DNA of 64,000 bases from Planctomycetes bacterium UBA1146. Lineage in GTDB: Bacteria; Planctomycetota; UBA8108. A program made the translations under genes and the position numbers. Positions 14,576 through 37,551 of the stretch are shown here, piece after piece; position 1 is the stretch's first letter, and each line of letters begins with the position of its first letter. The notes under the pieces were generated by a model. That model saw nothing but the letters and a program-made list of their open reading frames with translations. It searched no databases and was not told the DNA's origin. The stretch is taken from positions 3,233 to 67,232 of the forward strand of contig CAUZHA010000007.1 of the NCBI GenBank assembly GCA_963579555.1, written 5' to 3'.

Positions 14576-15183
14576 GCGCTTTCATCTCCGGCCGGCTGGG
14601 CTTCTGTCTCTTCACGGCTGAAGTTCAGATTCGAGTCCAGGGTCTCCAGCAGCACGTTGGCATTGGTGATGACGTGCTCTACGTCCTTGCGGACAGCAGC
14701 CGTCAGGTGCTCGTCCATCAGGATCAACTCGGCGTAGCAGAAGACCGCGTTGAGGGGATTTTTCAGGCTGTGGGCAAGGCTCCTCATGCTCTCGCGGTGA
14801 CGGAGCTCCTGGTGCGAGGGATCAAGCAGGATAGACTGCCATCTCGTCATCGCCCGGATGCGGCAGTCCAGCTCCTCCCGTCTTCCCGGGAGTACGACAA
14901 AATCCGTGGCTCCGTTTTCAATCCAGAGCCTGCCCTCTTTCTTGTCGCTTACCACGGCCAGGGTCAAGGGGGGAAGCCCGTCTCTTTCAAGGAGGCTATC
15001 CAGGTCTCCAATCCTGACAAGGTCTGCATCGAGCACGATGCAGAGCGAGGAGGATGCTTGCCGGCGACTTCCCAGCAGGCTTTCGATGCTGCTGTATTCG
15101 TGTACCTGCAGCGAGCGAAGCAGACTGCTGGCCGATCGTAGCCGGCCGGCCGGATCGATCAGGGCTAGTATTCTATCCTTCAT
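14572..15183 (-). CDS. Pseudo-receiver + HisKA-only protein (candidate histidine phosphotransferase, ChpT/Spo0B-like)
   Basis: Receiver-like N-half with degenerate positions (single D in beta1; VLP replaces the T-K-P lysine). C-half carries an H-box (SLAHSLKNPLNAVFCYAELI) but no N/G1/G2 ATPase boxes. Stop overlaps the kinase start (ATGA at 14572-14575). Confidence 0.6.
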   Translation of the reverse strand: MKDRILALIDPAGRLRSASSLLRSLQVHEYSSIESLLGSRRQASSSLCIVLDADLVRIGDLDSLLERDGLPPLTLAVVSDKKEGRLWIENGATDFVVLPGRREELDCRIRAMTRWQSILLDPSHQELRHRESMRSLAHSLKNPLNAVFCYAELILMDEHLTAAVRKDVEHVITNANVLLETLDSNLNFSREETEAQPAGDESA

Positions 15184-16878: not shown

Positions 16879-17332
16879 CCTATGAAAGAAGGAGTCATTA
16901 AATGAATAGTGTTGGATGTCAGGATATCTGACAGGTGACCGGGCGATGCCGCTTCTGCTCCTGTAGCACTATCTCCATTCAATACAAAGGTTTAGGGATA
17001 ATAATTGAGAGATGGAACAGTGGTTGCATATTTGTTTCTATCGAGCCCTAGGCCTTATTCAGCCAGGATGGGTTCCAGCACCCGACAGATTTCGGGATTT
17101 ACCTATTTCTATTTAAGTTATCGGCTCATTTATTCCGAAAATATATAGAGTGTAGCAGTCTTTTTTGCCGCGATGGCTCAATTGGTTGGAGGAGTCCTTG
17201 ATAGGGCAACGATCATCGCTGAGGAGAAAGCTTTATTGTTTCTTACAGTGCATCACCTGCACTGTTTGCTGTTGGTGCATCATCGTGCAAGCCTCCCCCT
17301 GGCAGGGGTTCGAGCGCGAGGGTGTTTCCATA

Positions 17333-20300
17333 ATGCGGGGAGCAACCGAGGCGTATGGCAAAGCTTACGACTGCTGGTCAGAGATAGAGAGTCTGGCTGT
17401 AAAACTCGCAGAGCCGAGCTTGAAGCAGGCCTCGAGGGCTCGTCGCCTTAATCTGGCGGTCAGTATGCTTGATTCGAATGAATTCAGCGTCCTGGCTAAG
17501 GGTGGCGACGACCCTCGGAGGGCTCCTGTTCTGGTTACCAGGGCCGGGCGGGAGATCGATGGGAAGGAGCTGGGAGAGATCATCAGGATCCTCTCGCTCG
17601 TTCGCCAGCGTTATCCTCTCCAGCACAATGCCGAGGCCCGGGATCTCCCACTGGTCTACGAGGCACTGGCGGTATTGCACGGTATTCACGGTGACAGCAT
17701 CCAGCAGCGGGCGGATGCGCGTTTTCGAAAAGCCCTCGCCGCCATCGAGGCGAGCTCGCGGTCTTCCCCCGAAGGAATCGCCGCGGCGATCAGGCTCCGA
17801 TTCATGCTGCGTGATTTCAAGGGGGCGTGGAATTATTCGAATCTTCATCAAGGCCTTCTTGAAAAGGCAGACCGGGGTACCCGCCTTCGTACTCTCGGTC
17901 TGCTGGCCCGGGCCGTGGAGTTTCTCGGCTACGGCGACAGGCTCCTCTCCATCAGGGAGCAGATTACAGCCCTGGGGGGCAAGGCGGAGCAGGCACCAAG
18001 GCCGCGTTCCCGTTTTGCCGGGCTCGCGGTCGGCTCGCGCGCTGAGCTGACCCTGGTCACCAGCGGGCTGGTCCGCCTGCTCGCCTCCTGTGAATTACGA
18101 AAGAGGGACAGGGCTCTCCTGGCCTTTATCGCCTCCCTGCCCGCTCTCGAGTTGGGAGAGTACGCGTTGGCCAGGGAGCTGCTTGAAGTTGATCTCGAGG
18201 GGATTGGATATCCCTGGCTGGAGGCCGCGGTCACTTCCCGAGCGGGTATGGCCTGCGAACTGCTGGGTGATTTTGAGGGGGCGCTCCATTCGCTGAAGCG
18301 AGCCCGCGCGCTGGCTGTCGCCGCCGGGGCAGCAGCCTTTGTCGCGCGGCTTGACCTGAACGAGGCCGCGGTGCTCATGGCGCTGGGAAAGCCGGTCGAT
18401 GCGGGTGAGCGGGCCCGGGGGCTGGTGAGAAGCCCCGCTGCTTCCCTCGAGGTCAGGATCAGGGCGCGCATACTGATGGGAGCGGCGCTGTATGAGCGGG
18501 GAAGAAGTGAGCCGGAACGTCTGGCCCAGGCCCTGAGGGTCTTCCTGACCGTGGATCGTGAGCTGAACGCCGATGCGGCGAGAAAGCTGCCGGGGAAGCT
18601 GGAGCTGGAGCTGACCAACTCGATCTACAAGGCCAACATCCTGCGCAAGCAGGCCCAGGCCCTTGGTGGCAAAGAAAAGACCGACAGGTATCGCAAGGCG
18701 ATCAGCCTGCAGGACGATGCCATGCGGCGCGCCGGAGAGGCCGGGAATACCAGGCTTTCGGCTATCGCCGGCTCCAATCTCGGGGAGCTTTACCTCGAGT
18801 CAGGATCTTATGAAAGCGCGGAGAAGTTTACCCGGTGGGCGCTCGACAGGGCGGTTGATTCCGGGCAGTTTGAGACCCAGTGGAGATGCCACTGGTATCT
18901 CGCCCGCATAGCCGAGAAGATGGGGCGAAGAGGTGAGGCTGAAAAGGCCCTGGGCGAGGCGGTTCGGATTGTGGAATCCTACCGTGCGAGGATCCTGGAC
19001 GTGGAGTCAAAGACAGGCTTCATGACCGACAAGATGGATATGTACCGCTATCTCGTTCGTCGTGAAATGAACGGAGGGCGAGCTGCCCGCGCCCTGGAGT
19101 TCGCGGAGCGTTCACGAGCTCGCGCCCTGGTCGAATCCATGGGCTGGAGGTTCGTCACGCTGGCTGAACCCAACGGCAGCAGGCTCTATCGCCAGTATGT
19201 TTCACTCAACGGCAGGGCAAACCTTTCCGGGGGCGGTGGAGCGATGAGCCTGCTCGGGGTCAGGGGGGCGCGTGAAGATTTCAATGCCCTGCGCGAGCGT
19301 CTGGCGGCAGTCAAGCAGAGGCTCCAGCTCGCGGCGCTCAAGCAGCCTCTGCTCGGGATGCTGGTAGATGGGGCACCCGCTACGGCGGCCGAGATCATGG
19401 CGGAATTGCCTGCGGATACAGCCTTGCTGGAATACTTCTCGCTGGGCGATTCCCTGGTTGTCTTCCTGGTCCAGGATGGGGAGGTGGCCGTGGCCGAGTT
19501 GAAGGTGAGTCCTCTCGATCTGGCGGATACAGTTCGGCGTTATCTTGCCGGTTCTGCCGCGGACCAGGCGCTCTCCAGCCAGCTCTACAAGGAGCTCCTG
19601 TCTCCCATCGCGGCGCGGGTGAAGAAATCACGCGTCCTGATCATTCCCCATGGCGTTCTTCACAGGCTGCCGTTTGAAACCCTTACGGGGCCGGAGGGTC
19701 TCCAGGTTGAGAGATGGACCATCTCGTATCTCCAGAGCGCGAGCCTGCTGAGGTATCTTCGTTTGAACTCGGTGCGAGGCGGAGCCGGGGGGCCCAGCGT
19801 TGGGCGGAAGCCGCTCAAGCTGCTCGCCCTTGCTGATCCGGACACCGATTACGACCGGGACGGAAAGCCGAATAAGGTGAGCCTGGTACACGCCCGCAAT
19901 GAGGTCGCGGCTTTTTCTCCCGGCTTCCGTGAGAGTGTCGTGTTGAGCGGCATCCAGGCCAAGGAGAGCGTCATTGCAGCGCTGTCGAGGGGGCAGGATG
20001 TTATTCACTTCGCCTGCCACGGCGAGTTCTATCCCGCCAGGCCATGGGAGTCGACCCTGTTTCTCGCTCCGGGCGGGGAGGGCGCGAGGACCAGCTCGCA
20101 AGATGGCAGGTTGAAGGCCTGGGAGATCTACGCGATGGATCTGAAGGGAAACCGGCTGGTGACTCTCTCCGGCTGCGAGACGGGCCGAAATGAAATCCAG
20201 GGAGGAGATGATCCAGTCGGGCTTGCTGCCGCTTTTCTGCATTGCGGAGCCGGGGCCCTGCTGGTGAGCCTCTGGAAGGTGGAGGATGAGGCAACTGCTG

Positions 20301-20446
20301 AGTTGATGAGCTTGTTTTACGATCATTGGATTCGCCATGGCAGGGATCGTGTCGATGCATTGCGACAGGCGAAGCTCGCGATGTTGAAGGGAAAATACAG
20401 TCACCCGCGTCAGTGGGCGGCCTTCGTATTCGTCGGAGACCGTTGA
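17333..20446 (+). CDS. TPR-repeat protein with C-terminal CHAT (caspase-like HC-dyad) protease domain; longest ORF begins at 17165 but its first 56 codons lie in AT-rich non-coding-looking DNA
   Basis: Long helical/TPR-like N-region. CHAT hallmarks VIHFACHGEF (His) and LVTLSGCETGRNE (Cys), plus the LLALADPDTDYD linker typical of CHAT proteins. Confidence 0.8.
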   Translation: MRGATEAYGKAYDCWSEIESLAVKLAEPSLKQASRARRLNLAVSMLDSNEFSVLAKGGDDPRRAPVLVTRAGREIDGKELGEIIRILSLVRQRYPLQHNAEARDLPLVYEALAVLHGIHGDSIQQRADARFRKALAAIEASSRSSPEGIAAAIRLRFMLRDFKGAWNYSNLHQGLLEKADRGTRLRTLGLLARAVEFLGYGDRLLSIREQITALGGKAEQAPRPRSRFAGLAVGSRAELTLVTSGLVRLLASCELRKRDRALLAFIASLPALELGEYALARELLEVDLEGIGYPWLEAAVTSRAGMACELLGDFEGALHSLKRARALAVAAGAAAFVARLDLNEAAVLMALGKPVDAGERARGLVRSPAASLEVRIRARILMGAALYERGRSEPERLAQALRVFLTVDRELNADAARKLPGKLELELTNSIYKANILRKQAQALGGKEKTDRYRKAISLQDDAMRRAGEAGNTRLSAIAGSNLGELYLESGSYESAEKFTRWALDRAVDSGQFETQWRCHWYLARIAEKMGRRGEAEKALGEAVRIVESYRARILDVESKTGFMTDKMDMYRYLVRREMNGGRAARALEFAERSRARALVESMGWRFVTLAEPNGSRLYRQYVSLNGRANLSGGGGAMSLLGVRGAREDFNALRERLAAVKQRLQLAALKQPLLGMLVDGAPATAAEIMAELPADTALLEYFSLGDSLVVFLVQDGEVAVAELKVSPLDLADTVRRYLAGSAADQALSSQLYKELLSPIAARVKKSRVLIIPHGVLHRLPFETLTGPEGLQVERWTISYLQSASLLRYLRLNSVRGGAGGPSVGRKPLKLLALADPDTDYDRDGKPNKVSLVHARNEVAAFSPGFRESVVLSGIQAKESVIAALSRGQDVIHFACHGEFYPARPWESTLFLAPGGEGARTSSQDGRLKAWEIYAMDLKGNRLVTLSGCETGRNEIQGGDDPVGLAAAFLHCGAGALLVSLWKVEDEATAELMSLFYDHWIRHGRDRVDALRQAKLAMLKGKYSHPRQWAAFVFVGDR

Positions 20447-20482
20447 TCATGTGTTTGAAGGCCGCCTGCGGGTGAAAGGAAT

Positions 20483-23400
20483 ATGAAAGTGAAGAGAGCC
20501 AAGGAACTTAGAATGGACACCAGAGGAACGAATTCTCCAGGCTGGTTCGGAGTGTTTTTTCTGCTTTGCGCGATAGCGGGCGGAATCGTAGTCAGCTGCA
20601 AAACTACCGAGCCTCCAGCCGGAGCGCAGAAAGATGAAAGCACCGCGCTCCAGCGGTCATCCGAAAAGCCGGTCGTTGGGGAAGCACCCATTGAGCCGAG
20701 GGCTGTTGTCGAAACAGGTCAAGGGGAGGGCGAGGCGCCGCCCGCCATTGAGGACGGGCTGATTGTCGAGCAAGCTCCGGTCCCTCCGTCAGCGATCGAG
20801 AAGGAGGCGGCTCCAGGGCCAGCTCCGGCCGCTCCGCCGGTCGCTGAGGTCAGCGAGGTCGCTGATGTTCCCACCGCAACCGGACCGGAAATCGTCGACA
20901 CGGCTGACTCGCCGCTGGCGGATAGCCGCGCCCTGGCGCTCCTGGATGAGCTGAATCTTCATCGACCGGCTGTTTTACCCGGCAAGCCTGCTGCCTCGCC
21001 GCCGCGGAAAAAAAAGAGCGAGCCTGCTGAGGGCCCGTCCGCAGCGAACGAAGCTGCCGAAGCGGTCAAGGTGCCGGCGCCGGTTGTCGAGTCTCCCAGG
21101 CCAGAGCCCCCGGCTGGGAACGAGGTGGAGATTCCGGAGATCAACAAAGATGTCCTGGATGCGCTGAACAGGCTGAAGGCTGCGCGGGGGAAGGCTGCTT
21201 CAGATCCCGAGAGCGCGGCGGTGCCGGGAGTTTCACCCGAGGAGAAGAAGGCGCCTCCCGTTTCCGAGCCGGCCCCGGCGGCAGGGGAGCGGAAGGAAGA
21301 GCCGGTTCTCCGCGGCGGCGAGCCCGCGCCCAAACCCGCCCCGGTCCCTGTGAAGGCTGAGCCCGCGCCCGAGCCTGCTCCTCGCCCCCAGGGCTATATC
21401 ACCTTCAAGACCCTCTTTCACAAGGGCGCCACCGAGGCGATCAGTTTTGTTGAGAACGTCAAGCCGGACTGGATCGAGAAAGGCCACCTGAGCAAGGTCG
21501 AGGGAAAGACACACTCTCTGGTGATCTTCGGAGAGACAGATGCTCCCACAGATCCGCTTACCCTTAAGATCGTGGATATGCTCGATCGCTATGACCAGCT
21601 CGACCTTGAAATCAAACGTGAGGTTCTGCGGCCGAAGTATGTAGGCGCCCGCCTGGCGATGGACGCCCTGCTGATGTCGGGCATCTGCAATGTGTGGCAG
21701 CTTACTCCATCAAGCGACGCTCTGACCTGGAAGGAAGGGACCAAGCAGAGGACCTTGTCGCGCACGACCGAGATGTATGTAGAGAAGGGCGGCGGTAGCG
21801 CCAATTCGCCATTGTCCGCGGCTCCGAAGATCCCGTTCGTCTACGACATGCCGAGCAAGGACGCGGTCACAATGCCCACAGGCTATGGAGGTGACAGCAA
21901 CAATGGATCGCTGGTGATGACCTTCGACAAGGCCTCATCTACGGAGATGCGTGGAGGGATGATGACGGTCGGTACAGCTGAAGATCTCGCGAAGATCAGG
22001 GCTTTCGTTGAGACCATCGATGTGCCGGCCCGAAGGATCATGATCGAGGTGCAGCTGATCGAGCTCGAGGCGAATAAGCTCACCGATTTAGGTATCGATT
22101 CCGCCCAGTTCGGCGGTGGTCACATCCTCGGCTCCGCGGGTCTGCCGCTGCCCGGCGAGACTATCGTCCAGCCGGGAATTTCTGGCGCGAGCGCTGAGGG
22201 TTCCTTTGTACCCGATGTGATGAACGAGGGTCTGAAACTGCTCTTTGATGATACCAGCCTGGATATCCAGGGGAGGTTTATGGCTGCTCTGCATATGCTG
22301 GTTCGGGAGGGCGAGGCCAAGGTCCGGGCCCGGCCGAAGATCCTGACTCTCGATGACCGTGTCAGCGCTCTGCATCTCGGCCGTAATGTTCCGACCTTCA
22401 ATTCGACGGGAGTCACTCGGGATACGACCAACGGTAACCTGATCAACGAGGTCCAGAGCGTGGGTACCGTCTACTCCGGTATTACGCTTCACATTCGGCC
22501 GCGGATAACCGGCGGGAAAGATGATCGCATTGCCCTCCAGCTCGAGATCATGGACAACCAGATCGTCGGACGCCAGAGAGTTTTTGAGACGGACCTCGCA
22601 GGAATCCCTGAGGTGATCAAACGCCAGTACATCGGCGAGTGCGTAGCTCACAATCACCGTCCGATCATTCTTGGCGGGCTGATCCAGGAGCAGGAGATCG
22701 ATACGGTCAACAAGATCCCCTTCCTCTCCGATATACCCTACCTCGGGGACCTGTTCCGTCGAACAGTGACCCAAAAGGAGAGGCGGGAGGTCATCATCGT
22801 CGTGACCCCTCATATTCTCAGCGAGGAGGGGATCGATGCTTCTGCCACACCGAAAGAGAGCATGCACTTCGACACCTTCGACAGCGTTCTCTTCAATGAC
22901 CGGCATATTCTCAAGGGAGGAGATGTTCTCGGGCTTGATCCCATTAACGGCGTTCCAGCCATCGGTCCTGACGGCAAGCGTTTTACCGAGATGGACGTGG
23001 TGGACCTGACCCTCCTGAATATCGTCAAAAGAAGACAACTGGTGACCAAGCTCGAGTTGCTGAAGGATTATCTCGGTGGTGAGGAGTTGTCGAAGCTCTC
23101 CTGGATGCAGCGAAAGTGGCCGGAGGGAACCGTTCAGGACTGGCCCGAGGAAGACAAGCCGCTTTTCTTCAAGGTTGCGGCGATCTGTATCGAAAACCTG
23201 AAGGAACTGAATCCGACCATCAGCTTCGCTGAGCTGAGTCTTCCCCGCAGAGAGATCGTGCTGCCGAACTCTCCGTATAACATCAGCCTGTCTTACGACA
23301 AGGTCCAGCGTATACAGAGCCTTGGGCTGCAACAGGTGTTCAGGGGCGGGAGGGTCGAACTCGAGGAGGCTCATATCGAGCTGGTGCGCCGGGCCAGTGG

Positions 23401-23797
23401 GCACAGCATGAGGGCCTTCGGTGTTTTCCTTGAGCGCCAGAAGCGCAAAGACGGGGCCACCGGTCGCGAGGCCGAGGACCACGGTATCTTTAAAGATGAG
23501 TTGCTTCGTCTCCACAGCGGACTGGGCAAGGATTCCTCCGCTTTGAAGGAGCTTCCCTACACGGAACTCTTCAGCGCGATAGAGAAGGAGAACCTGTCCT
23601 TTGACAGTATCGCGACCTTTCTCGAGACGAATATGAAGGAGCGCTACGACATAGAGGGAGCTCCGGATGTGGGTGCGTTCCCGGCCGATCTGGAGGCCTT
23701 TCTGAAAACCACCGTCAGCCTGAAGAGCCGTGCGAAGAAGCTGCAGGACCTCGAAGATCGCTGGATCCTGGTGAACACCGACGAGGAGGACGAGTAA
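20483..23797 (+). CDS. Secretin (GspD/PilQ superfamily outer-membrane channel) with Pro/Ala/Glu-rich N-terminal linker and ~330-aa C-terminal extension
   Basis: N-terminal TM/signal segment (GWFGVFFLLCAIAGGIVVSC). ~280 aa low-complexity PAPEPA region. Secretin core RRIMIEVQLIELEANKLTDLGID...ILTLDDRVSALHLGRNVP...CVAHNHRPIILGGLIQEQEIDTVNKIPFLSDIPYLGDLFRRTVTQKERREVIIVVTPHIL. Confidence 0.8.
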   Translation: MKVKRAKELRMDTRGTNSPGWFGVFFLLCAIAGGIVVSCKTTEPPAGAQKDESTALQRSSEKPVVGEAPIEPRAVVETGQGEGEAPPAIEDGLIVEQAPVPPSAIEKEAAPGPAPAAPPVAEVSEVADVPTATGPEIVDTADSPLADSRALALLDELNLHRPAVLPGKPAASPPRKKKSEPAEGPSAANEAAEAVKVPAPVVESPRPEPPAGNEVEIPEINKDVLDALNRLKAARGKAASDPESAAVPGVSPEEKKAPPVSEPAPAAGERKEEPVLRGGEPAPKPAPVPVKAEPAPEPAPRPQGYITFKTLFHKGATEAISFVENVKPDWIEKGHLSKVEGKTHSLVIFGETDAPTDPLTLKIVDMLDRYDQLDLEIKREVLRPKYVGARLAMDALLMSGICNVWQLTPSSDALTWKEGTKQRTLSRTTEMYVEKGGGSANSPLSAAPKIPFVYDMPSKDAVTMPTGYGGDSNNGSLVMTFDKASSTEMRGGMMTVGTAEDLAKIRAFVETIDVPARRIMIEVQLIELEANKLTDLGIDSAQFGGGHILGSAGLPLPGETIVQPGISGASAEGSFVPDVMNEGLKLLFDDTSLDIQGRFMAALHMLVREGEAKVRARPKILTLDDRVSALHLGRNVPTFNSTGVTRDTTNGNLINEVQSVGTVYSGITLHIRPRITGGKDDRIALQLEIMDNQIVGRQRVFETDLAGIPEVIKRQYIGECVAHNHRPIILGGLIQEQEIDTVNKIPFLSDIPYLGDLFRRTVTQKERREVIIVVTPHILSEEGIDASATPKESMHFDTFDSVLFNDRHILKGGDVLGLDPINGVPAIGPDGKRFTEMDVVDLTLLNIVKRRQLVTKLELLKDYLGGEELSKLSWMQRKWPEGTVQDWPEEDKPLFFKVAAICIENLKELNPTISFAELSLPRREIVLPNSPYNISLSYDKVQRIQSLGLQQVFRGGRVELEEAHIELVRRASGHSMRAFGVFLERQKRKDGATGREAEDHGIFKDELLRLHSGLGKDSSALKELPYTELFSAIEKENLSFDSIATFLETNMKERYDIEGAPDVGAFPADLEAFLKTTVSLKSRAKKLQDLEDRWILVNTDEEDE

Positions 23798-24558
23798 TGG
23801 TCCGTTTCCGGACGCTATGGCCGGCACTCCTTGCGATCACTGTGCTGGGCGGCTGCTCCTCGACGCCTGAAGAAAAGCTGACTCCTACCGATTGGTTGCG
23901 GGAGAACTCAAGTGTGCTGCGAGATCTCGAGAGCTTCGAGAAGGGGCGTCAACAGCGGGCGGTAGTCCGTCTCAAAAGCCTCGGGGCTGATCGAGGCGGC
24001 GCCGTGGTGGTCGCCTTGCTGGCGGATTCCCAGATTGACTACCGAGGCGAGGTGCTCCTGGCCCGTCTTCTCGCCGATTGGAGGGACAAAAGGGGTACCA
24101 GGTACCTGTTGAAGTACCTGATGCACCAGGACCAGGGCGCTGTGGAGATTGCCAGCGAGGGGCTCCTGGCTTTTGATGGCGACCCCTTGGTTATCCGGGC
24201 CCTGCTTGAGATGCTGCAAAATCCATCAGTCCAGCAGCGGCTGGCGGCTGTGGGGGTGCTCTCTGGGATGGAGAGCGATGAGCTGATGGAGCGTTTCCCT
24301 GAGCTCTACCGAAAGGAGGGCGAGAAGCTGGTGCGGGGGGTTCTGGTGAGAACAGTCCTCCAGGGGAAGCATCCCCGCCGGGATGAGTTTCTTCTTGAGG
24401 CCTTGCTCGATGCCGACCTGGCTATCAGGGAGATGGCCTGGGGGGCATTGAAGAAGCGGGCCCGGTTGCCGGAGGTCAAATATGAACCGTCCGGGGGCGA
24501 GGCCGCCAGGGCGAAAGCCGTCAGCAGCCTGAAGCGCTGGCTTGCAGGGGACAGCTGA
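23797..24558 (+). CDS. HEAT/PBS-repeat lipoprotein, translationally coupled to the secretin gene
   Basis: Start ATG overlaps the secretin stop (TAATG). Lipobox TVLGGCSS. Repeated alpha-helical HEAT-like units (LLADSQIDYRGEVLLARLLAD..., VQQRLAAVGVLSGM..., DLAIREMAWGALKK). Confidence 0.6.
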   Translation: MVRFRTLWPALLAITVLGGCSSTPEEKLTPTDWLRENSSVLRDLESFEKGRQQRAVVRLKSLGADRGGAVVVALLADSQIDYRGEVLLARLLADWRDKRGTRYLLKYLMHQDQGAVEIASEGLLAFDGDPLVIRALLEMLQNPSVQQRLAAVGVLSGMESDELMERFPELYRKEGEKLVRGVLVRTVLQGKHPRRDEFLLEALLDADLAIREMAWGALKKRARLPEVKYEPSGGEAARAKAVSSLKRWLAGDS

Positions 24559-24698: not shown

Positions 24699-25232
24699 AT
24701 GTCCAGGAGAGGGATTTCTATGAGTAACGAGGTATGGAAAGAGTTCGCGGCGCACGAGGTGACGCACAGCGTTGCGCACTATCTCACCACCATCCAGGGA
24801 CTCAGGCAGTTGAAGGGCTACGCCATACTGAAGGATGTGGCGAATGGTCTGCAGGTGACCAAGGGATCCGCGTCTGTGCAGATCAAGAATCTCAAGGAAC
24901 GAGGCCTCGTTACAGAGATCGATCGTCATCATCTCTGCCTTACCGAAGATGGCGAGAAGGTTGCCATGCAGGTGGTTTACAATCGTGGGGTGATCACGAG
25001 TTTTTTCCACAAGGTGCTTGGTCTCAATTCCGAAAGCGCTGAAATTGATGCCTGCAAAATCGAGCATCTCCTGAGTCATGAGGCCAGCGAACGACTTCTC
25101 GGCCTGGTTCAATTACTTTCCCAGGATGACCCTGTTGTGGCTGGTTTCCTGAAGAAGTTCAAGTCTTTCAAGGTTATCTGCCCAGAGCACGAAAACTGCA
25201 ACGTTTGTGAAGACGTTTGCCTGGAGGGGTAG
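24699..25232 (+). CDS. DtxR/MntR-family metal-dependent transcriptional regulator with C-terminal Cys-rich tail
   Basis: N-terminal wHTH HSVAHYLTTIQGLRQ...ILKDVANGLQVTKGSASVQIKNLKERGLV parallels DtxR/IdeR. C-terminus CPEHENCNVCEDVC is an extra Cys cluster. Confidence 0.7.
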   Translation: MSRRGISMSNEVWKEFAAHEVTHSVAHYLTTIQGLRQLKGYAILKDVANGLQVTKGSASVQIKNLKERGLVTEIDRHHLCLTEDGEKVAMQVVYNRGVITSFFHKVLGLNSESAEIDACKIEHLLSHEASERLLGLVQLLSQDDPVVAGFLKKFKSFKVICPEHENCNVCEDVCLEG

Positions 25233-25415
25233 TAAATCGATTCTAAGGGTTTGCCTCTGCCCAAATGACCGTAGCTTCGTATTGCATAACATTATGCGGT
25301 ATAAAGGCATGCGGCCTCTCTGAGAGCCCTTGAGAAAGGGTTCTCAGGCTCTTCAGGCAGCTGGTTTGAGCTACAGATCAGTAGTTTGGCTTGCAGATCT
25401 TCAGTTAGGACACAC

Positions 25416-25438
25416 AAACCCTTTAAATATAAGGGTTT
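25416..25438. promoter_or_regulatory. Perfect palindrome AAACCCTT-TAAATATA-AAGGGTTT, candidate operator between the DtxR-like and ferritin-like genes
   Basis: 8-bp inverted arms around an 8-bp AT spacer, ~130 bp upstream of the ferritin-like start codon in an otherwise GC-rich genome. Confidence 0.35.
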
Positions 25439-25567
25439 ATATCAATTAAGTGTTGAAAAGTAGCGTTCCTGGTCGAATAATACATTTGGTGTGGTAATTG
25501 ACAGGCATCCAGCCTGCTGATATGAGTTCCGCCTAATCAACACTATGAGAATCACGGAGAAGAGAGA

Positions 25568-26020
25568 ATGGATAAAGTAATCGAGTTTCTGAACAAGGCG
25601 TTGAGCATCGAATATTCAGCCGTCATCCAGTATTGCCAGCACAGCGCCCTGGTGCAGGGTATCGACCGGGCTGTTTATGAGGAATTCTTCAACGAATCAA
25701 GTGAAGAGGCCCGGGGGCATGCAAAGCTGGTCTCTGACTGGATCGTTTCTCTCGGGGGAGTGCCGACGATAGAGGCTGCGAATATCAAGCAGGCCACCTC
25801 GGTGGTGGATATGCTCCAACAGGACCTGGAAACGGAAATGGAAGCTCTCGATACCTATCGCAGCGCGCATGCGGCGGTTGCGGATAACGAGCCGATCAAG
25901 TTTATGCTCGAAGAGCAGATCATGCAGGAACAGAAGGACGTCTGGGAGATCGAGAAGTTCCTCTCGATGCACAAGATCGAGGTCAAGAGCAAGAATATCA
26001 ATCTTGCCGCCAACGACTGA
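25568..26020 (+). CDS. Ferritin-like diiron protein (bacterioferritin-like)
   Basis: 150 aa. LNKALSIEYSAVIQYCQHSA...EARGHAKLVSDWIVSLGGVP...EMEALDTYRS...MLEEQIMQEQKDVWEIEKFL parallels the Bfr four-helix bundle with E/H metal ligands. Confidence 0.7.
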   Translation: MDKVIEFLNKALSIEYSAVIQYCQHSALVQGIDRAVYEEFFNESSEEARGHAKLVSDWIVSLGGVPTIEAANIKQATSVVDMLQQDLETEMEALDTYRSAHAAVADNEPIKFMLEEQIMQEQKDVWEIEKFLSMHKIEVKSKNINLAAND

Positions 26021-28296: not shown

Positions 28297-29358
28297 TCAG
28301 GTGGTGCGTTCTTTTTTCTTAGCCTTTTTCTTCAGGGCCTTCTCGAACTTGAAGAGCCGGTCCTCCATTTCCTCGCGCTGGGTTTCAGGGGCGAGCTTGA
28401 TGGCCTTGCGCTGGGTCTCGACGGCTTCCTTGAGCTTGCCGCTTCGGAAGAGACACTCTCCGAGGGTGTCGAGGATGAAGGCCGCCTCGGGTTGGAGCCT
28501 GGCCGCCTTCCTGGCCAGCTCGAGAGCTCTCCCGAGCTTCTCATCGTGGATCGCCAGGAACCAGGCGTAGTTGTTGAGAAGGGTGGCGTCAGTTTCACCG
28601 ACATGCCTGATGAGGTATTCGCCCACGGCGACCACCTTGGCGACCTCATCTCCATCCTGGTAGGCCCGCATGAGCAGCCTGGCATGGTCGACAACCCCGG
28701 CCTTGTCCTTCTTCTTGTCGAAGTAGGCCTGGAGCCCGGCGATGTCCCTGCTGCGGCTTTTCATGAAGCTCAGCAGGGCCATGCGTCCTTCGGCGACCTC
28801 TCGAATGGCCGAGCCCGCGTCCTTCGCGTCGAGAACTTTTTTGTACAGGGCTTCGGCCTTGGCGTACTGCCGTCGCTCTTCTTCTTTTTTCCCGAGCTCG
28901 ACCGCGACCTCCAGGTTCTTCGGCTCCTGCTCTGCCTTCTTCTTGAGCGCGCCGTAGGATTTTCCGGCGAGGATCGGCTTGATGGCGCTGATGAATTGGT
29001 CGGGAGGGCGGAAGCCGGTGATGCGGTCGAGCTCTTCACCCTTGGCATCGACCACGAGGAGGGTGGGGAAGCCGCGGACGCCGTAGCGCTTGACGATATC
29101 CTTTCCCTCGCCCTTCTCGGCGTTGATCTTGATCGAGACGAAATTCTTGTTCAGCAGGGCGGCGACGTCTTTGTTCGGATAGGTCTCACGGACCAGTACT
29201 TTGCACCATCCTCACCAGTCGGTGTAGAAATCGATGTAGACCAGCTTCTTGCTCTCAGCGGCCTTCTTCAGGGCACTGTCAAAGGAACCATCGGTCCATT
29301 TGACACCTTCAGCGGGAGCGGAGAGGAGCACGGTAGAGAGCAGCAGCGCCAGCGACAT
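28297..29358 (-). CDS. Candidate selenoprotein: periplasmic thioredoxin-fold (UxxC) + TPR protein with in-frame TGA (29212..29214) at the first CxxC position
   Basis: Minus-strand frame from ATG 29358: MSLALLLSTVLLSAPAEG...KKLVYIDFYTDW-[TGA]-GWCKVLVRETYPNKDVAALLNKNFVSIKINAEKGEGKDIVKRYGVRGFPTLLVVDAKGEELDRITGF... It runs in the same frame into ORF 28297..29055, which carries the TPR helices. UGWC replaces the thioredoxin-like CGWC. Confidence 0.6.
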
Positions 29359-29521
29359 GGTTCACCTCACAGGCTATAGTTTCCGATTGACGGTCGGAGC
29401 TCGACCGCTTTGATGATCAGCTTACCTGGCCTGATCCTACCGCCACGGACACGCAGAGGCAATCCATCGCGTGTTTTCGTTGGCTTGTTTTTCCAGTTGC
29501 CCAACGGCCTCAGCGTTTTCA

Positions 29522-31746: not shown

Positions 31747-34700
31747 TTACTCAGCACAGGTCGCCGTGTCACACCCTTGCGAAACGTCGCCGACGTCCGT
31801 GGTGCGACCACAGGTCGCGGGAGCCGGGTGGTCAGCACCACCGAGGAACAGCCACCTCAGGGTGTAGCTGGGGTCGGAGATGTTGACGCTTCCGTCCTGG
31901 TTGGCGTCGGCAGCCGCCAGGCATGGCGGGTCGCCGCCACCGAGGAACAGCCAGTTCAGCGTGGCGCTCGGGTCGGAGATGTTCACAGTTCCATCTCCAT
32001 TGGAGTCGCCGCGGGCGAACGGACCGATACCCGGATCGAAAGGCGTAGCTTCTGCCGCGCTCGAAGCATCCGACTCGTTACAGGAGTCAGAGGCCGTGAC
32101 GGTGTAGCTGTAGGTGGTGTCGTTAACGGCGGTGTCGTCAACATAGGAACTCTCGGTGAGTCCCGAAGCCAACTCGGCGCCATCTCTGCTGACGGTGTAG
32201 CTGGCCAGATCAGCCGCACCGCTGTCATCCCAGTCGAGGCTGACCTGGTTGTCGCCCTCAACGGCCGCGAGGCCGGAAGGAGCGCCAGGAGCTTCGACAT
32301 CGGAGCTGACACTGTAGCTGGTCGAACCAAGGCTCGGCCTGTAGGTCTGGCCTCTCCAGGTGACAACCGACTGTACCGGACGACCGCCTCCGACAAGGCC
32401 GTTGACGACATCGAGGCTGACGGTTGCGGCATCAGCGCCATCAGGATTGGTGCTTTCGACAGTCACCGTAGCGACTGAGGAGCTGCCATCCGCGGCCAGC
32501 GAAACAGGCTGAGTGAAGGAAATGATGACGGCCGTAATGGCTCCATCATTTCCAGCTCCCGAGGTGAGCTCGGAGAGCTCGAAGCCACCGTCGATCAGGC
32601 CGCCGGCATCGGTGCCATCGGTCGAGATCGCGGTGATCGAACCGCCGCTTGCGGTAACGCCCAGTGAGTAGCTCTGGGCTCCCTCGTCGGAGGGGTTGTC
32701 GCTGGTCACGAGGACGACATCGACATTAGCCGAGCTGGTAGCTCCCGCACAACCGCCACTTTGGTCGGCAGCGCCGGAGAACTCGTAAGCGAAGGTCGGG
32801 TTCGGAGCCACTCCGGCACCGAGCTCGTACAGGGTGATGTTGGCGACTTCCTGGTCGGCCGTGGCGCCACCGGTTCCGCCGGTGAAACCAATGATCAGGT
32901 CGCCGGTGAGCGGCACCACATGGCTGTCGACCACCACCAGCTCATCGTTGAGCGTGACAGTGACGTGCCCGTTGGGCGCGTACTTGACGGCTACGTGGAC
33001 GCCATCCTCGGTGAAGAGGCTCGGCAGGTCGCCGGCTCCGACTCCGAGGTCCATGTTCGTCGCGACATGCGCGTTGACCATGGTGTTGGCAAGAAGTCCG
33101 ACGTGGTAGCTGCAGTCGTTGTTCGGCGAACCGCCGGTGGCCGGATCAAATCCGCCCACCCAGTTGTCGAACTCGACCGAGAAGCTACCGTGGCCTTCGG
33201 TGCGCTGCAGGAGCGCGTTGCCCCACAGGCCCTCAGCGCCGCCGCCGTCTCCACGCAGGGAGTCGAGGGCGAGGTCGGCCGGGAAGGCGCCCATCGGGTC
33301 GCCGGTTCCGCCAGCCTCGATCATCGTGACGGTGAAACCATCAGCGGGGTTCGGGTCGGCACCGGGGTCACAGCCGACCGGTCCCATGAACGCGTCGAAC
33401 TCGAGCACGAAGCCCGAGCTCAGGTCCAGGGGCTGGGGCAGCCAGACCGCGTTGGCCGAGCCGCCGACGGCGTTCGAAGTGATACGGAGGTGACCGTTGT
33501 CGAGCACCTCGGGACGGTATCCACCGCCCTGGACGACAACCAGGCCGCTGTCGGCGGGGTCGCCGGCGGCGAGGTCGAGGGGGCCGATCTCGTCGCCGCG
33601 AACACTCTCGTCGGCGCCGGGATCATAGGCCTCGATCGAGACCTGGTCGAAGACCGCACTGCCGACATCGCCGGAGTGGTTGGTCAGGGCGAGTCCGACG
33701 AGCAGGGTGTCGGGACGATCCGGATGGGAGTCGCCGCCAATCGTCTGCCACTGGATCGGGTCGCCATTCTCATCCTCGAACGCGAGCTGCGTCTGGATGA
33801 GGGCTCCGACACGGTACATACGCATCCAGGTGGGACGGCGGTTGACCCGCTGTCCGGCGTCCGGATCAAAGCCCGCGAGGGCTCCGTCGTCGACCTGGTA
33901 GTTGTCGCTGCTCGATCCGTTCTCCCCTTGGTTCTGCCGCCATGAGTGGCGGGGAAGATCAATCTCAGCTTCGTTAACTCCGGAGAGATTGGTCTGGATC
34001 ATCGAGTAGCGGGCGTTGGAGTGACAGGTCTGGCGGGCCATAAGGCCGTGCTTACCCCAGCGTCCACTCGCTCCATCGATACGGTCGGCAATGTGGGCCG
34101 TCGCGACGAAGTTACCCGTGACCGCCTTGTAGGCGAACGCGAAGTGATCTCCGCCGTTCCAGATGTCGGAACCGTTGGCTTCGACGGTGTAGCTGTCGCT
34201 GTCAGCGTCGTAGGTGACTCCGCCCTGGTTCGCATCTCCAATGAGGTGCGAGTTGTCGAAGTCGCCGATCGGACCCGTCGCGTCGGCCGCGAAGGGAACG
34301 CCGCTGATACCGTCAACGGGAGTCGGTCCGCCACCGAGGTCGAAGGTACCGCTGGCGCTCGAAGAGCCGCTGTCGGAATAGGCGAGCGTATAGCTCAGTC
34401 CCGCGTTCACGTCCGCGACGGTGGTTTCCCACACGATGCTCACGCTGGTGGTGACCTCTTCATCTGTGGGTGAGAAGATCTCAACCTCGGCGAGGCTCAG
34501 GAACGCCTCTGGAATCGAGACGCGGACAATCTGTCCATCAGCGTCAACATCGGGAACAGTAAAGTTCACGGCGCTGTTGGCGTTGAGGCCGGCGCTCTCG
34601 AAGACCACGTTGCGGTCGATATCGAGGACCTGGACCGTGAAGTTGGCCAGCCGCTCGCTGCAGCAGTCCAGACGGTTCCAGAGCCTGATCGATTCGATGT

Positions 34701-37551
34701 AGTAGGAGGCCTGGAGGTCAACTTCCCACCAGGAGTCCATACCGTCCGTATGCGTGACGGAGCCGCCGCCCCACTGGCCATCGGTGTTGCCGTCGATCGC
34801 GCGCCCGGGAGCGCCTCCAAAACCCTCGGAGGACTGGGTGGCGACACCGTTGGGCCCGACGTTGAGCGAGGCGAGGCCCTGGGTCGACTCGATCGTTCCG
34901 CCGTTGGAGATGTCGGTGATCGTATAGGCGTCGAGGGCGGCCACGGGGCCGAAGCTCTCGACTACGGTTATCGCGTCGCCGGCCACTCCGCCACCGTTAC
35001 CGGTGATCTGGAAGGGCACGGAAGCCTGCGGGCAGGCGTTGGGGGAGAGGGTAGCCGTACGGGCCACACAGAGGGTCGGCTGCCCGACGGTGTCGGCATC
35101 GCCGGCGCCGAGAAGAGTGATCTCGGGGATGCCGCCGCCCCGGATCGGCAGGCTGTTGACCTTCGCGCCGTTGTACTCGACAGCGACGCGCATGTTCCAG
35201 CCGCCTCCGCCTTCCCATACCAGCGCGGAGAGCTTATTGACTCCCGGCAGGAGAACCGCTGGGCGGCGCTCCTGGCAGTCCCCGGCGCTTCCGCGGCAGG
35301 CGCTCACGTTGGTGATGATGTTGCAGTTGAGCATAGTGAGGACCGAGTCGTCACTTGCCGTACAGATGTCGACCGCCAGTGGAGAATCAGTATTATTCTG
35401 CACGTAGGTCGTGGCGATGCTCATGACGTTGTCATTGGGAATCCCTCCGCCGATCCCGGCGTTCTGGAGGGTCACGGCGATGCCCTGGAAATCGACCAGG
35501 TCGCCGTCGGGAAGCTCAACGCCGAGGTTGTCGGCGACAAAGGCGTGGGTCACCCAGATCGGACCATCGCTGAGACCTCCGTTGTTGAAGCCGTTGGAGG
35601 GAGAGGCACCAAAGTCGATGTCCCACTCGTCGCCGGCCTTGGGGTCTTCGGTTCCCAGATCGTAGGGAGGAACCCAGTTCGAGCCCATGACTCCCTGGCC
35701 GCCGCCGCCGCAACCGAGGGGGTTGAGCAAGGGGGCCATCCAGTTCCAGCCGCTGGCCTGGATCCAGCCGTTGCGGGCGATTCCGAAGTCGATATCGCAG
35801 CCCGCGACACCTCCAGCCTGGCCCTCGAGATCTCCACCGCCTGAGCCGTGGAATACGATTCCGAGATCGTTGGCATCGTTGATCACCTGGTCGGTCAGGG
35901 TCCGGAGTCCGAAGCGCATGTTGAAGCCACCGCCGCCTTCCCAGACGTGGGTGGTGATCTTGTTCATACCGGGAAGCAGGGTCGCGCAGTTGCGCTCCTG
36001 GCAGTTGCCGGCGCTGCCGCGGCAGGCGCTGGCGTTGGTGATGAGGTTCTCGTTCAGGTCCGCGCGAATCGAGTCATCACTCGAGGTGCAGAAGTTGACC
36101 CAGATCGACTCATCCGTGGTGTTTTCGACGTAGGTCGTCGAGATCGCCACGAGGTTGTCGGTGTTGGCACCGAGAGCGCCTACGTAGGCGTCGAAGTTCA
36201 CCAGGTCGTCCTGGCCGTTGACTGCAACGCCGTTGTCGTTGAGGAAGGCAGTGGTGGCCCAGGTGGGCAACTCCGCCACGGCCGTCAGGGTCCAGCCTCT
36301 GGACTCTACCGCGCCGAAATCGATGTCCCACTGGTCACCGGCTTGCGGTTCCTCGTCGAACAAGTTGAAGCCTGTCCAGTCGCCGGCCATGCGGCCCACG
36401 CCGCCGCCGCCGCAACCACCGTCCTGGTCAAGGATCAGCATGTTCCAGGCCTCGGCCTGGATCCAGCCGTTGGGGTTGACCGGCATGGCGCCGGGCTCGC
36501 CGAGGCTGACGTCGAGCTGGTAGGGGCCGCTGTCGCTGCCCCAGCCGTGCACGAGAATGTAGTAGGTCACGTCCTCTTCTGTTTCCCAACTGATGGAGGA
36601 CAGGCAACATTGTCCGGGCCTGACACAGGCATCGTCGTTGTTGAGGATAGCTGTGAGCCCAGCGACTGCGGTTCCAGAGCCGCCGCCGACATCGTTGCCG
36701 ACGAACGCGTTGATCTCGTTGAAATCGTCGTTGAGAGAGAGGTAGGTCACCGTCTGCGGGATAGCTCCATCGGAGTTGTGGTCACTGTTGGCGAAACCGA
36801 CAAAGACGGTCTCGGGCATCGTGCCGCGATCCTCGGCATGTCCGGCAGTCCAGGAGGCATCGTCACGCGGGTCGGCAGGGGCCTCGGCGGACCACCACGA
36901 CTGGAATACGTTGCCGCGACGGGTCAGACGAGTGTACACGGGGCGCGCTCCTGCGCCGTCCATGAGGATCTCGTACATGCCACCACCGGCGACGCCGTGC
37001 TCACGGCGACCGGCCTGGCGGGACACGTCATCGTTGGAGGGCCCGTGGAACTGGGTCTGCATGAACTCAGATTCGCGGGTCAGCTCGCGGCGGGCCATGA
37101 GGCCCATCTTGCCCCAGCGCCCGGCGTTGGTGTCGTGCGAGTAGTCGACCATCTCGATGGCAACATCGAAGTCGCCGGTTATCTCGGTGTAGTCAAACTG
37201 GAAGTCATCGCCACCGGTCCAGATATCGCCACCAGAGGTGCTGGTGTTGGCGGTCGCAGGGGCGCAACTGCCGGTGAAGACGCTCAGGGCCGTGTCGTAG
37301 GCAGAGCCTTCACCACAGGTGCCTACCGTGGCTACTCCGCGGTTACCGACGATCGTGTACCAGACGCCAGGGGCGTTTGGAAACAGGGCGCCTGCATCGG
37401 GCGTCGCATCGGCGGTAGATCCAGTTGCGGAATCTCCACTCTCCAGAGCGATCGCGCCACAAGGCTCATCGTTCTCTTGCGAGAATACGGTCGAGCCAGT
37501 CGAGGCCAGGAGTCCGAAGACCGCCAGCAAAACAATAAATCTCTTACACAT
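31747..37551 (-). CDS. Giant (1934 aa) secreted cell-surface protein: N-terminal Cys-containing repeat domain, internally duplicated ~200-aa modules, F5/8 discoidin-like, LamG/ConA-like regions, FN3, C-terminal dockerin-like pair
   Basis: Signal peptide. N-domain shares the TCGS..YDT.LS.F.G.C / YYILVHGW motif with the 680-aa neighbour. Duplicated GWIQA..W...GCGGGG...AGD.WDIDFGA...ACRGSAG.CQER...VWEGGGG.NMR modules. Discoidin-like NVGPNGVATQSSEGF...WWEVDL. FN3 + dockerin-like tail (GDSNGDGTVNISD...DANQDGSVNISD). Confidence 0.8.
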   Translation of the reverse strand: MCKRFIVLLAVFGLLASTGSTVFSQENDEPCGAIALESGDSATGSTADATPDAGALFPNAPGVWYTIVGNRGVATVGTCGEGSAYDTALSVFTGSCAPATANTSTSGGDIWTGGDDFQFDYTEITGDFDVAIEMVDYSHDTNAGRWGKMGLMARRELTRESEFMQTQFHGPSNDDVSRQAGRREHGVAGGGMYEILMDGAGARPVYTRLTRRGNVFQSWWSAEAPADPRDDASWTAGHAEDRGTMPETVFVGFANSDHNSDGAIPQTVTYLSLNDDFNEINAFVGNDVGGGSGTAVAGLTAILNNDDACVRPGQCCLSSISWETEEDVTYYILVHGWGSDSGPYQLDVSLGEPGAMPVNPNGWIQAEAWNMLILDQDGGCGGGGVGRMAGDWTGFNLFDEEPQAGDQWDIDFGAVESRGWTLTAVAELPTWATTAFLNDNGVAVNGQDDLVNFDAYVGALGANTDNLVAISTTYVENTTDESIWVNFCTSSDDSIRADLNENLITNASACRGSAGNCQERNCATLLPGMNKITTHVWEGGGGFNMRFGLRTLTDQVINDANDLGIVFHGSGGGDLEGQAGGVAGCDIDFGIARNGWIQASGWNWMAPLLNPLGCGGGGQGVMGSNWVPPYDLGTEDPKAGDEWDIDFGASPSNGFNNGGLSDGPIWVTHAFVADNLGVELPDGDLVDFQGIAVTLQNAGIGGGIPNDNVMSIATTYVQNNTDSPLAVDICTASDDSVLTMLNCNIITNVSACRGSAGDCQERRPAVLLPGVNKLSALVWEGGGGWNMRVAVEYNGAKVNSLPIRGGGIPEITLLGAGDADTVGQPTLCVARTATLSPNACPQASVPFQITGNGGGVAGDAITVVESFGPVAALDAYTITDISNGGTIESTQGLASLNVGPNGVATQSSEGFGGAPGRAIDGNTDGQWGGGSVTHTDGMDSWWEVDLQASYYIESIRLWNRLDCCSERLANFTVQVLDIDRNVVFESAGLNANSAVNFTVPDVDADGQIVRVSIPEAFLSLAEVEIFSPTDEEVTTSVSIVWETTVADVNAGLSYTLAYSDSGSSSASGTFDLGGGPTPVDGISGVPFAADATGPIGDFDNSHLIGDANQGGVTYDADSDSYTVEANGSDIWNGGDHFAFAYKAVTGNFVATAHIADRIDGASGRWGKHGLMARQTCHSNARYSMIQTNLSGVNEAEIDLPRHSWRQNQGENGSSSDNYQVDDGALAGFDPDAGQRVNRRPTWMRMYRVGALIQTQLAFEDENGDPIQWQTIGGDSHPDRPDTLLVGLALTNHSGDVGSAVFDQVSIEAYDPGADESVRGDEIGPLDLAAGDPADSGLVVVQGGGYRPEVLDNGHLRITSNAVGGSANAVWLPQPLDLSSGFVLEFDAFMGPVGCDPGADPNPADGFTVTMIEAGGTGDPMGAFPADLALDSLRGDGGGAEGLWGNALLQRTEGHGSFSVEFDNWVGGFDPATGGSPNNDCSYHVGLLANTMVNAHVATNMDLGVGAGDLPSLFTEDGVHVAVKYAPNGHVTVTLNDELVVVDSHVVPLTGDLIIGFTGGTGGATADQEVANITLYELGAGVAPNPTFAYEFSGAADQSGGCAGATSSANVDVVLVTSDNPSDEGAQSYSLGVTASGGSITAISTDGTDAGGLIDGGFELSELTSGAGNDGAITAVIISFTQPVSLAADGSSSVATVTVESTNPDGADAATVSLDVVNGLVGGGRPVQSVVTWRGQTYRPSLGSTSYSVSSDVEAPGAPSGLAAVEGDNQVSLDWDDSGAADLASYTVSRDGAELASGLTESSYVDDTAVNDTTYSYTVTASDSCNESDASSAAEATPFDPGIGPFARGDSNGDGTVNISDPSATLNWLFLGGGDPPCLAAADANQDGSVNISDPSYTLRWLFLGGADHPAPATCGRTTDVGDVSQGCDTATCAE

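Follow-up and report, generated by a model that had tools for sequence, protein, structure and literature searches.

Is a TGA codon that interrupts an otherwise continuous thioredoxin gene a site of selenocysteine (Sec) insertion, or is it a stop? The question is raised by positions 28297-29358 (minus strand) of a 64-kb stretch of DNA from Planctomycetes bacterium UBA1146, contig CAUZHA010000007.1 (hereafter the window, meaning the whole stretch). A reading made from the letters alone, called here the sequence-only reading, had proposed that this codon replaces the first cysteine (Cys) of a thioredoxin (Trx) CxxC motif in a periplasmic protein with an additional domain of tetratricopeptide repeats (TPR). 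We examined the homologues, RNA structure, protein domains and gene neighbourhood of the locus, and conclude with a probability of about 0.88 that it is a genuine Sec-encoding gene; its product is predicted to be exported.

One reading frame with an internal TGA

The minus strand contains a single 353-codon frame from ATG 29358 to TGA 28297, with one internal TGA (29212-29214). Its translation reads MSLALLLSTVLLSAPAEGVKW...LVYIDFYTDW, TGA, then GWCKVLVRETY...RGFPTLLVVDAKGEELDRITGF..., with no break until the terminator TGA at 28297-28299; the segment before the internal TGA is MSLALLLSTVLLSAPAEGVKW...KKLVYIDFYTDW, and the segment resuming after it is GWCKVLVRETYPNKD...RGFPTLLVVDAKGEELDRITGF... 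The internal TGA occupies the first position of the thioredoxin CxxC motif (FYTDW-U-GWCK, in which U denotes Sec). Re-translation agreed throughout with the frame given by the sequence-only reading, which led from ATG 29358 through a signal peptide and LVYIDFYTDW across the TGA into 28297..29055 with its TPR. The list of open reading frames (ORFs) cuts the gene in two at the TGA, as also remarked there, giving pieces of 48 amino acids (aa; 29212..29358) and 252 aa (28297..29055). ATG 29358 is the earliest start following an in-frame stop two codons 5', so that a longer N-terminus is excluded; GAGG lies 6 nt before this ATG.

TGA and Cys forms of the family

Homologues were searched for among 5.8 billion proteins. 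Among the close homologues, nearly all were gene calls cut short, with 53-85% of the query covered; several started with MLVRETY or LVRETY, a few codons past the TGA. DNA was fetched for nine of these truncated homologues, and in every one a 'gene' of 47-48 aa had been called directly 5', the same split as in the window. Full-length homologues (P0005, P0017 and P0021-P0025) had Cys at the TGA column, mostly as FYTDWCGWCK, and one of them, P0005 (351 aa), spanned 100% of the query.

The codon aligned to residue 49 was read in 91 loci from genome and metagenome collections and in 12 more via exact-protein look-up. After de-duplication, it was TGA in 47 sequences and TGC or TGT in 42, at identities of ~31-99%. 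TGA does replace the nucleophilic Cys, as originally proposed, and the alignment to Cys homologues that had been suggested as a check returned a column of Cys or TGA. The UGA is matched in homologues by both Cys and UGA, the pairing by which bacterial selenoproteins are recognized, and this Sec/Cys pair is family-wide. A neighbour-joining tree built from 80 family members requires a minimum of 11 switches between Sec and Cys; entire deep clades carried TGA, and occasional Cys members (L043, L065, L070 and L080) were nested within them.

A lone in-frame stop resembles a fresh nonsense mutation or a base-call error for TGC or TGT, and gene callers treat it so. However, the gene was present in four independent metagenome assemblies with 0 nt differences, TGA included. 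The column also reads TGA in 20 distinct orthologues, the most divergent at 55% identity, and in further clades at identities as low as ~31%. In addition, neither half has lost the frame and both are under purifying selection, with synonymous changes on either side of the TGA. A pseudogene or a sequencing or assembly error, the latter having been named beforehand as a way in which the proposal could fail, is already effectively refuted, and we consider its probability negligible. Replacement of Cys by Sec, and not random decay, is what the conserved column, the repeated switches and the RNA-level constraint on the hairpin described below indicate, in agreement with the sequence-only reading.

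UGA is recoded in some bacterial lineages, and a genome-wide reassignment to Trp or Gly (genetic codes 4 and 25) would also turn the codon into sense. Against this, 17 of the 27 Pfam-supported window genes, including the selenoprotein gene itself, end in TGA, at positions that fit full-length domains, which makes TGA an ordinary stop in the source genome. In-frame TGA in the family was confined to the catalytic Cys column and never occurred at its Trp or Gly columns, and none was seen in the window at conserved Trp or Gly columns of housekeeping genes. The same pattern recurs in lineages of 32-67% G+C. Reassignment has practically no chance of being correct. A scan of the window for further redox motifs with an in-frame TGA gave 114 matches, mostly in non-coding frames (59% G+C), among which only that at 29212 was convincing.

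The Sec form of the Trx-TPR family is spread over very different lineages. Sec members outside the Planctomycetota subfamily (L024, L025 and L033-L091) were mostly AT-rich, with 32-48% G+C in the 60 nt read, and mostly carried lipoprotein-type signal peptides. Two further observations concern individual relatives. Loci L096:78-980 and L095:412-1314 had the same DNA 3' of the TGA over the compared stretch, with an identical 300-aa downstream product, and differed just 5' of it (LVMADFYKDW vs PVFIDFYTDW), which suggests recombination or chimeric assembly at the active-site region. In the close orthologue P0004 (469 aa; ENA contig of 2394 bp; 93% identity), the TPR domain runs into an unrelated C-terminus resembling APH/PF01636; this fusion is probably a chimeric contig or a rearrangement.

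The hairpin downstream of the UGA

A short hairpin, GGUC-CGUGA-GACC, begins 17 nt past the UGA and has its loop at 21 nt. The sequence-only reading had pointed to it, ~20 nt 3' of the codon, as possibly belonging to a selenocysteine insertion sequence (SECIS), and the evidence of RNA-level constraint bears this out. Its 15-nt core was identical in 20 distinct TGA orthologues whose proteins share 55-99% identity, and codons +6 to +10 (L, V, R, E and T) had a third-position entropy of 0 in this set. Codons flanking the core varied synonymously (GGA/GGC/GGG, AAA/AAG, GTA/GTG/GTC, TAT/TAC and CCG/CCC/CCA). The Arg codon in the loop was CGT in all 20 orthologues, a codon that accounts for only 10% of window Arg codons, and CGC was dominant at other Arg columns of the same gene. 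A single copy of the core was found in the window and a single copy in each of 19 Sec orthologue loci, with no further occurrence in those sequences; when a second copy was sought in the window, the best candidate was a 3-mismatch match at chance level. Constraint beyond the protein code, examined here as a mark of a selenoprotein, is present in this hairpin.

Conversion to Cys offers a complementary view. P0005 (L092:6001-7056 and L093:1042-2097; codon TGT), the closest Cys orthologue, is nested within the Sec subfamily and shares 81% identity with the Sec member P0007. Its 5' arm carries GAT (Asp) in place of GTC (Val; window 29191-29193), a change that destroys the stem. Since Cys relatives usually have Asp here (CKVLD, CDTLD and CKRLD), the Val of the Sec forms appears to be imposed by the hairpin, and would be released upon Sec-to-Cys conversion.

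A published model of the bacterial SECIS (bSECIS) specifies a loop of 3-9 nt with G in its first two positions, an upper stem of 4-16 bp, a UGA-to-loop distance of 16-37 nt and a minimum free energy (MFE) of -7.5 kcal/mol or lower (PMC13188914, Fig. 2). The window hairpin conforms to these rules: the loop CGUGA has 5 nt, with G at position 2 followed by U, and sits on an upper stem of 4 bp at a spacing of 21 nt, with a constrained MFE of -9.3 kcal/mol. The rules were passed by 36 of the 47 TGA sequences, 18 of the 42 Cys sequences and 32% of codon-shuffled controls, counts that come from sequences which are not phylogenetically independent.

Other Sec clades had different hairpins at the same offset from the UGA. 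In one clade, the hairpin (A/G)(A/G)ACC-AGUU-GGU(U/C)(U/C) contained two columns with a compensatory AU-to-GC change. Another clade had CGGC-UGGAU-GC(C/U)G, which places the rare codons CGG-CUG in AT-rich genomes; in L069 of this clade, a compensatory GC-to-AU change also replaced Ala by Val. A third clade had the hairpin AGGUUGGA-GGA-UUCAACCU. Here, the Cys member L065 retained the full 10-bp hairpin of its Sec sisters L068, L072, L076, L085, L088 and L091, and the Cys members L070, L061 and L074 had successive substitutions that disrupt it. These four Cys loci form an apparent series of hairpin decay after Sec loss.

Two additional structures predicted from folding energy around the window hairpin, a lower stem (GGAU...AUCC) and a 5' hairpin (GGUGC-AAA-GUACU), were rejected as parts of the element; both were kept inconsistently among orthologues, with one-sided changes.

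Domain architecture and export

For domain searches, Cys was put in place of the internal stop. Four Pfam families, Thioredoxin_2, Thioredox_DsbH, Thioredoxin and Thioredoxin_7 (PF13098, PF03190, PF00085 and PF13899, respectively), matched over aa 8-127, all above gathering scores, and TPR families matched over ~aa 270-330. An AlphaFold2 model, based on a 28-sequence alignment, was made for the Cys homologue P0005, which is 53% identical to the window protein. With a mean predicted local distance difference test (pLDDT) value of 94.9 and a predicted template modelling score (pTM) of 0.85, it shows a Trx fold at residues 25-129 behind a disordered N-terminus, followed by eleven helices over residues 134-350 (pLDDT > 95). 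The CxxC starts helix 49-58, and strand E98-102 follows GFPT. Both hallmarks of a Trx-fold oxidoreductase are present: helix alpha1 has a CxxC-type motif at its N-terminus, and there is a cis-Pro loop. A Trx fold followed by a TPR fold is the architecture of the family.

Curated models placed the protein near known families but outside them. The top NCBIfam match was the C-terminal DsbD-like domain of TsoB, with 74.9 bits vs a cutoff of 805, and the scores for DsbD (66.3 bits vs 330) and DsbH (38.7 vs 190) indicate relatedness only, not membership in these equivalogs. Only sub-threshold matches were found for the window protein and seven other Sec subgroups, and no curated NCBIfam family, selenoprotein-specific or other, takes in the window protein.

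The window protein carries a predicted N-terminal export signal, for which the position of the cleavage site is a prediction. Relatives in other lineages have canonical secretory (Sec-type) or lipoprotein signal peptides (...IFGC, ...LFSSC and ...FISC), so the Trx-TPR family as a whole is probably exported.

The fold also bears on the possibility that the UGA is a true stop and that the locus makes two products, a secreted 48-aa peptide and an internally initiated TPR protein of 252-300 aa. Public gene calls annotate the locus in this manner in every case examined, and GTG, ATG or TTG codons occur soon after the UGA in some orthologues. However, in the model, the first 48 codons account for the signal peptide and for strand beta1 and the beginning of the active-site helix in a single Trx fold, which a split would cut between strand and helix. 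No downstream start was conserved (MLVRETY, LVRETY, MSKHF, MKIDAE and MRGFPT). The two parts invariably share one frame and are separated by a single stop, Cys relatives are single full-length proteins, and hairpin conservation would be left unexplained. Orthologue comparison further showed that the first 48 codons are conserved with synonymous variation. The upstream part is not an independent gene, an outcome that would have spoken against the original proposal; the locus is a single gene, and two separate products are very improbable. Because the TGA column is conserved, the assemblies are identical, TGA is an ordinary stop and the Sec clades are deep, the pseudogene, sequencing-error, reassignment and two-gene explanations are all untenable.

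Weighing the evidence and a proposed mechanism

Several observations weigh against Sec insertion at this codon, or against the function proposed for its product. tRNA-Sec was not found in the 64-kb window or in 34 loci, and selA, selB and selD were absent from the window and the fetched flanks. No conserved redox partner was found in the neighbourhoods of the window gene and fetched loci. The 4-bp upper stem is the shortest that the bSECIS model permits, and the rules themselves are weakly specific, with 32-43% of controls passing. In isolation, the hairpin has only about -3.2 kcal/mol. An RNA fold downstream of 29212, which the sequence-only reading had recommended, gave a divided answer: the hairpin fits the bSECIS rules, but an unconstrained fold of the 70 nt after the UGA was no stabler than shuffled sequences (z = +0.49). 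The lower stem has no covariation support in the window subfamily, and a permissive Rfam scan of 29100-29280 returned chance-level matches and no SECIS family. Finally, the structure modelled is that of P0005 and not of the window protein, and the biochemical role (reductase activity, TPR function and electron donor) is read from domain homology.

With regard to RNA, TGA and Cys loci did not differ in mean folding energy over 52 nt (Mann-Whitney p = 0.84), and the stem in the window subfamily displays invariance only, with no covariation. Global stability was dropped as a criterion, and position-specific hairpins and synonymous-site conservation were therefore used.

Downstream RNA structures can stimulate stop-codon read-through in other systems. 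Programmed read-through without Sec, in which a near-cognate tRNA inserts Trp or Cys with stimulation by the hairpin, is an explanation to which the shortness of the conserved hairpin and the lack of observed Sec machinery in the window lend some support. However, insertion of Trp would inactivate the CxxC, and UGA occurs only at the redox Cys column, where its alternation with Cys over the switches counted above is the signature that defines selenoproteins (PMC13188914). The bSECIS geometry, including G-U in a loop at 21 nt, likewise speaks against such read-through. In addition, Sec decoding is documented in the phylum: full Sec machinery was reported in Planctomycetes strains P1 and P2, Gemmata obscuriglobus and Isosphaera pallida, and candidate selenoproteins include a 'thiol-disulfide isomerase-like thioredoxin' (PMC4807772). 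We regard read-through without Sec as improbable, and retain Sec insertion as the explanation of the locus.

In the mechanism that we propose, UGA 29212-29214 would be decoded as Sec by Sec-tRNA(Sec) and SelB, the latter being recruited by the mRNA hairpin inside the coding sequence, with its loop 21 nt downstream of the UGA; the gene ends at an ordinary UGA without such a hairpin. Sec49 would be the attacking nucleophile and Cys52 the resolving residue. The TPR domain may bind client proteins or a partner in the periplasm, where Sec49 would attack a client disulfide or sulfenic acid to form a mixed selenenylsulfide, which Cys52 would resolve to an internal Se-S bond. A DsbD/CcdA-type electron shuttle in the membrane, encoded elsewhere and not nearby, could then reduce this bond again. 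Domain homology makes a periplasmic reductase with a client-binding TPR domain a tentative assignment, with somewhat less than an even chance of being right.

Gene neighbourhood and other features of the window

Coordinates of the features discussed above are collected in Table 1. The relatives of the window are Planctomycetota metagenome-assembled genomes (UBA8108, UBA1662, CBFHWB01 and others). The gene lies between a 680-aa protein with TSP3 repeats upstream and an ammonium transporter and tRNA-Val downstream, a synteny that is kept in close relatives. More distant orthologues have other neighbours, so that the neighbourhood points to neither an operon partner nor an electron donor. Pfam analysis of ~37 window ORFs found no SelA, SelB or SelD, BipA being the only translational GTPase, and only two tRNAs reached the gathering threshold in an Rfam scan of the whole window.

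Table 1. Features of the probable selenoprotein locus, in window coordinates
Feature	Position	Strand	Basis
Probable complete selenoprotein gene, 353 codons including one Sec codon; terminator TGA 28297-28299	28297..29358	-	Frame; full-length Cys homologue P0005; identical assemblies
Shine-Dalgarno-like GAGGTG 5' of ATG 29358	29363..29368	-	Read from sequence
Predicted signal peptide, ~aa 1-17; hydrophobic core LALLLSTVLLSA, A-P-A before E-G	29308..29358	-	Hydropathy; low N-terminal pLDDT in homologue model; relatives
Trx-fold domain, ~aa 20-130, DsbD-gamma/DsbH/Thioredoxin_7 type; cis-Pro motif GFPT	28969..29301	-	Pfam; sub-cutoff NCBIfam; 2KUC
Predicted Sec codon TGA, residue 49, first position of U-G-W-C	29212..29214	-	Aligned TGA and TGC/TGT homologues
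Resolving Cys codon TGC of UxxC, residue 52	29203..29205	-	TGC in 20/20 orthologues
SECIS-like element, 15-nt core U-GGUC-CGUGA-GACC-U; stem-loop proper 29182-29194, loop CGUGA 29186-29190	29181..29195	-	Invariance
C-terminal all-helical TPR-like domain, ~aa 135-345	28324..28956	-	Pfam TPR_2, TPR_12, TPR_19; model; Foldseek

Several other loci in the window deserve mention. Near the selenoprotein gene, a DtxR-type iron-dependent repressor adjoins a ferritin/Dps-like gene (24699-26020, plus strand), and this arrangement is kept in the identical assemblies L104-L106. Three consecutive genes at 17165-24558 (plus strand) code for one protein each with a CHAT domain (1093 aa), a secretin domain (1104 aa) and HEAT repeats; it is unusual to find a caspase-like CHAT protein paired with a secretin. 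Two giant predicted proteins are encoded on the minus strand, one of 1796 aa with PQQ/BamB-like beta-propeller and CBM9 domains (6538-11928) and one of 1934 aa with an F5/8 type C domain (31747-37551), both with no Pfam match over most of their length. At 12063-15183 (minus strand), the ORFs of a response regulator, a hybrid histidine kinase and a HisKA-only protein are crowded together, with 12063-13139 overlapping 13016-14575 and 14572-15183 abutting; mis-set start codons or a split kinase gene may account for these overlaps.

Implications

This locus adds a well-supported exported selenoprotein to the Planctomycetota, a phylum that is not mentioned in the text of a 2026 selenoprotein inventory (PMC13188914). 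It also illustrates a problem of annotation: gene callers render it as a fragment of 47-48 aa plus a truncated TPR protein, both in the window and in all relatives whose gene calls were inspected. Because gene calls are split and no NCBIfam model reaches its cutoff, the active-site half is missing from public protein sets, and a dedicated family model would recover dozens to hundreds of selenoproteins.

The set of 20 orthologues is a natural experiment on SECIS constraint, in which the 15-nt core is invariant and a rare Arg codon is fixed in the loop, and in which Val reverts to the family-typical Asp when Sec is converted to Cys. It could guide the design of minimal SECIS elements. In the more far-reaching and rather unlikely reading taken up below, the SECIS of the window subfamily is reduced to an invariant mini-hairpin of 13-15 nt that dictates Val over Asp, and such a mini-hairpin would define a minimal SelB-binding element for the Planctomycetota.

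The pairing of Trx and TPR domains suggests client-directed periplasmic redox repair that uses selenium. One could go further and regard the exported Trx-TPR family as a periplasmic selenium-dependent 'chaperedoxin', in which the TPR domain would hold envelope clients and the Sec site would rescue oxidised cysteines; we think this version rather unlikely. Should it be true, many marine bacteria would rely on their supply of selenium for redox repair in the envelope, given that Sec is found in about half of the sampled family, over several phylum-level lineages (G+C 32-67%).

Comparison with known systems

Trx-fold proteins with a UxxC motif have long been known and are the commonest kind of bacterial selenoprotein. 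Those of the DsbD-gamma type had been catalogued by 2008 (PMC2398784; PMC13188914). The window protein resembles them in having Sec for the N-terminal Cys of CxxC, a Thioredoxin_2/DsbD-gamma-like domain, abundant Cys homologues, a bSECIS-type hairpin in the coding sequence 3' of the UGA and a marine setting. Unlike them, it carries a signal peptide and ends in a TPR-like domain ~210 residues long. The 2026 inventory (PMC13188914) has no entry for a TPR-fused, exported UxxC protein, no paper in the literature collection searched describes a UxxC thioredoxin-tetratricopeptide selenoprotein, and the family's motif strings had no match in part of Dataset S1 of the Global Ocean Sampling (GOS) data. 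By the inventory's practice of listing fusions apart, the TPR-fused form is possibly a new family, WP_011366075.1 and the GOS reads having been compared with it by description only. The architecture had earlier been called unusual; the fusion of Trx and TPR was confirmed, but it proved to belong to a large exported family in which about half of the sampled members have Sec.

YbbN/CnoX is a 'chaperedoxin' composed of thioredoxin and TPR domains. CnoX is cytoplasmic, and the E. coli protein has SxxC instead of CxxC. The E. coli (3QOU) and Salmonella (3QDN) structures have the same order of domains as the window protein, N-terminal Trx followed by a C-terminal TPR-like domain. They were the first matches when the P0005 model was compared with the PDB by Foldseek, with both domains spanned, 325-344 aligned columns and E ~1e-6. 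However, at 14-15% identity, template modelling (TM) scores of 0.25-0.32 and a root-mean-square deviation (rmsd) of ~22 A, homology over the whole protein is not indicated; given the low identity and TM scores, the resemblance is one of architecture only, with a different arrangement of domains. Unlike YbbN/CnoX, the window protein is predicted to be exported, has UxxC and contains a Trx domain of the DsbD-gamma/DsbH subtype. Among examined sequences, the CnoX-type TPR_20 was found faintly in the precomputed Pfam families of P0014 only, and not in the window protein. The helical domain of the model also matched consensus TPR, LapB, OGT and MamA.

For the Trx domain itself, the best match was the Bacteroides 'putative disulphide-isomerase' 2KUC (E = 1.7e-23, TM 0.85, 38% identity), and TM scores were 0.72 with DsbH (2JU5) and 0.71-0.76 with DsbD-gamma. 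These proteins are all exported, as is predicted for the window protein, but each of them uses Cys and lacks a TPR domain; DsbD-gamma, unlike the window protein, is tethered to a membrane electron transporter.

Fusion of a Trx-type domain to another module is also seen in TsoB (NF045694, rhodanese/DsbD fusion-like) and in Trx7/PDZ (NF041199), in which the partner domains are rhodanese and PDZ, whereas that of the window protein is TPR. Their Sec motifs, UxxxxU in TsoB and CxxU in Trx7/PDZ (PMC13188914), differ from the UxxC of the window protein. Known principles of Sec decoding are unchanged by the window gene, which most likely works like the Trx-fold UxxC selenoproteins and, at the domain level, belongs with them.

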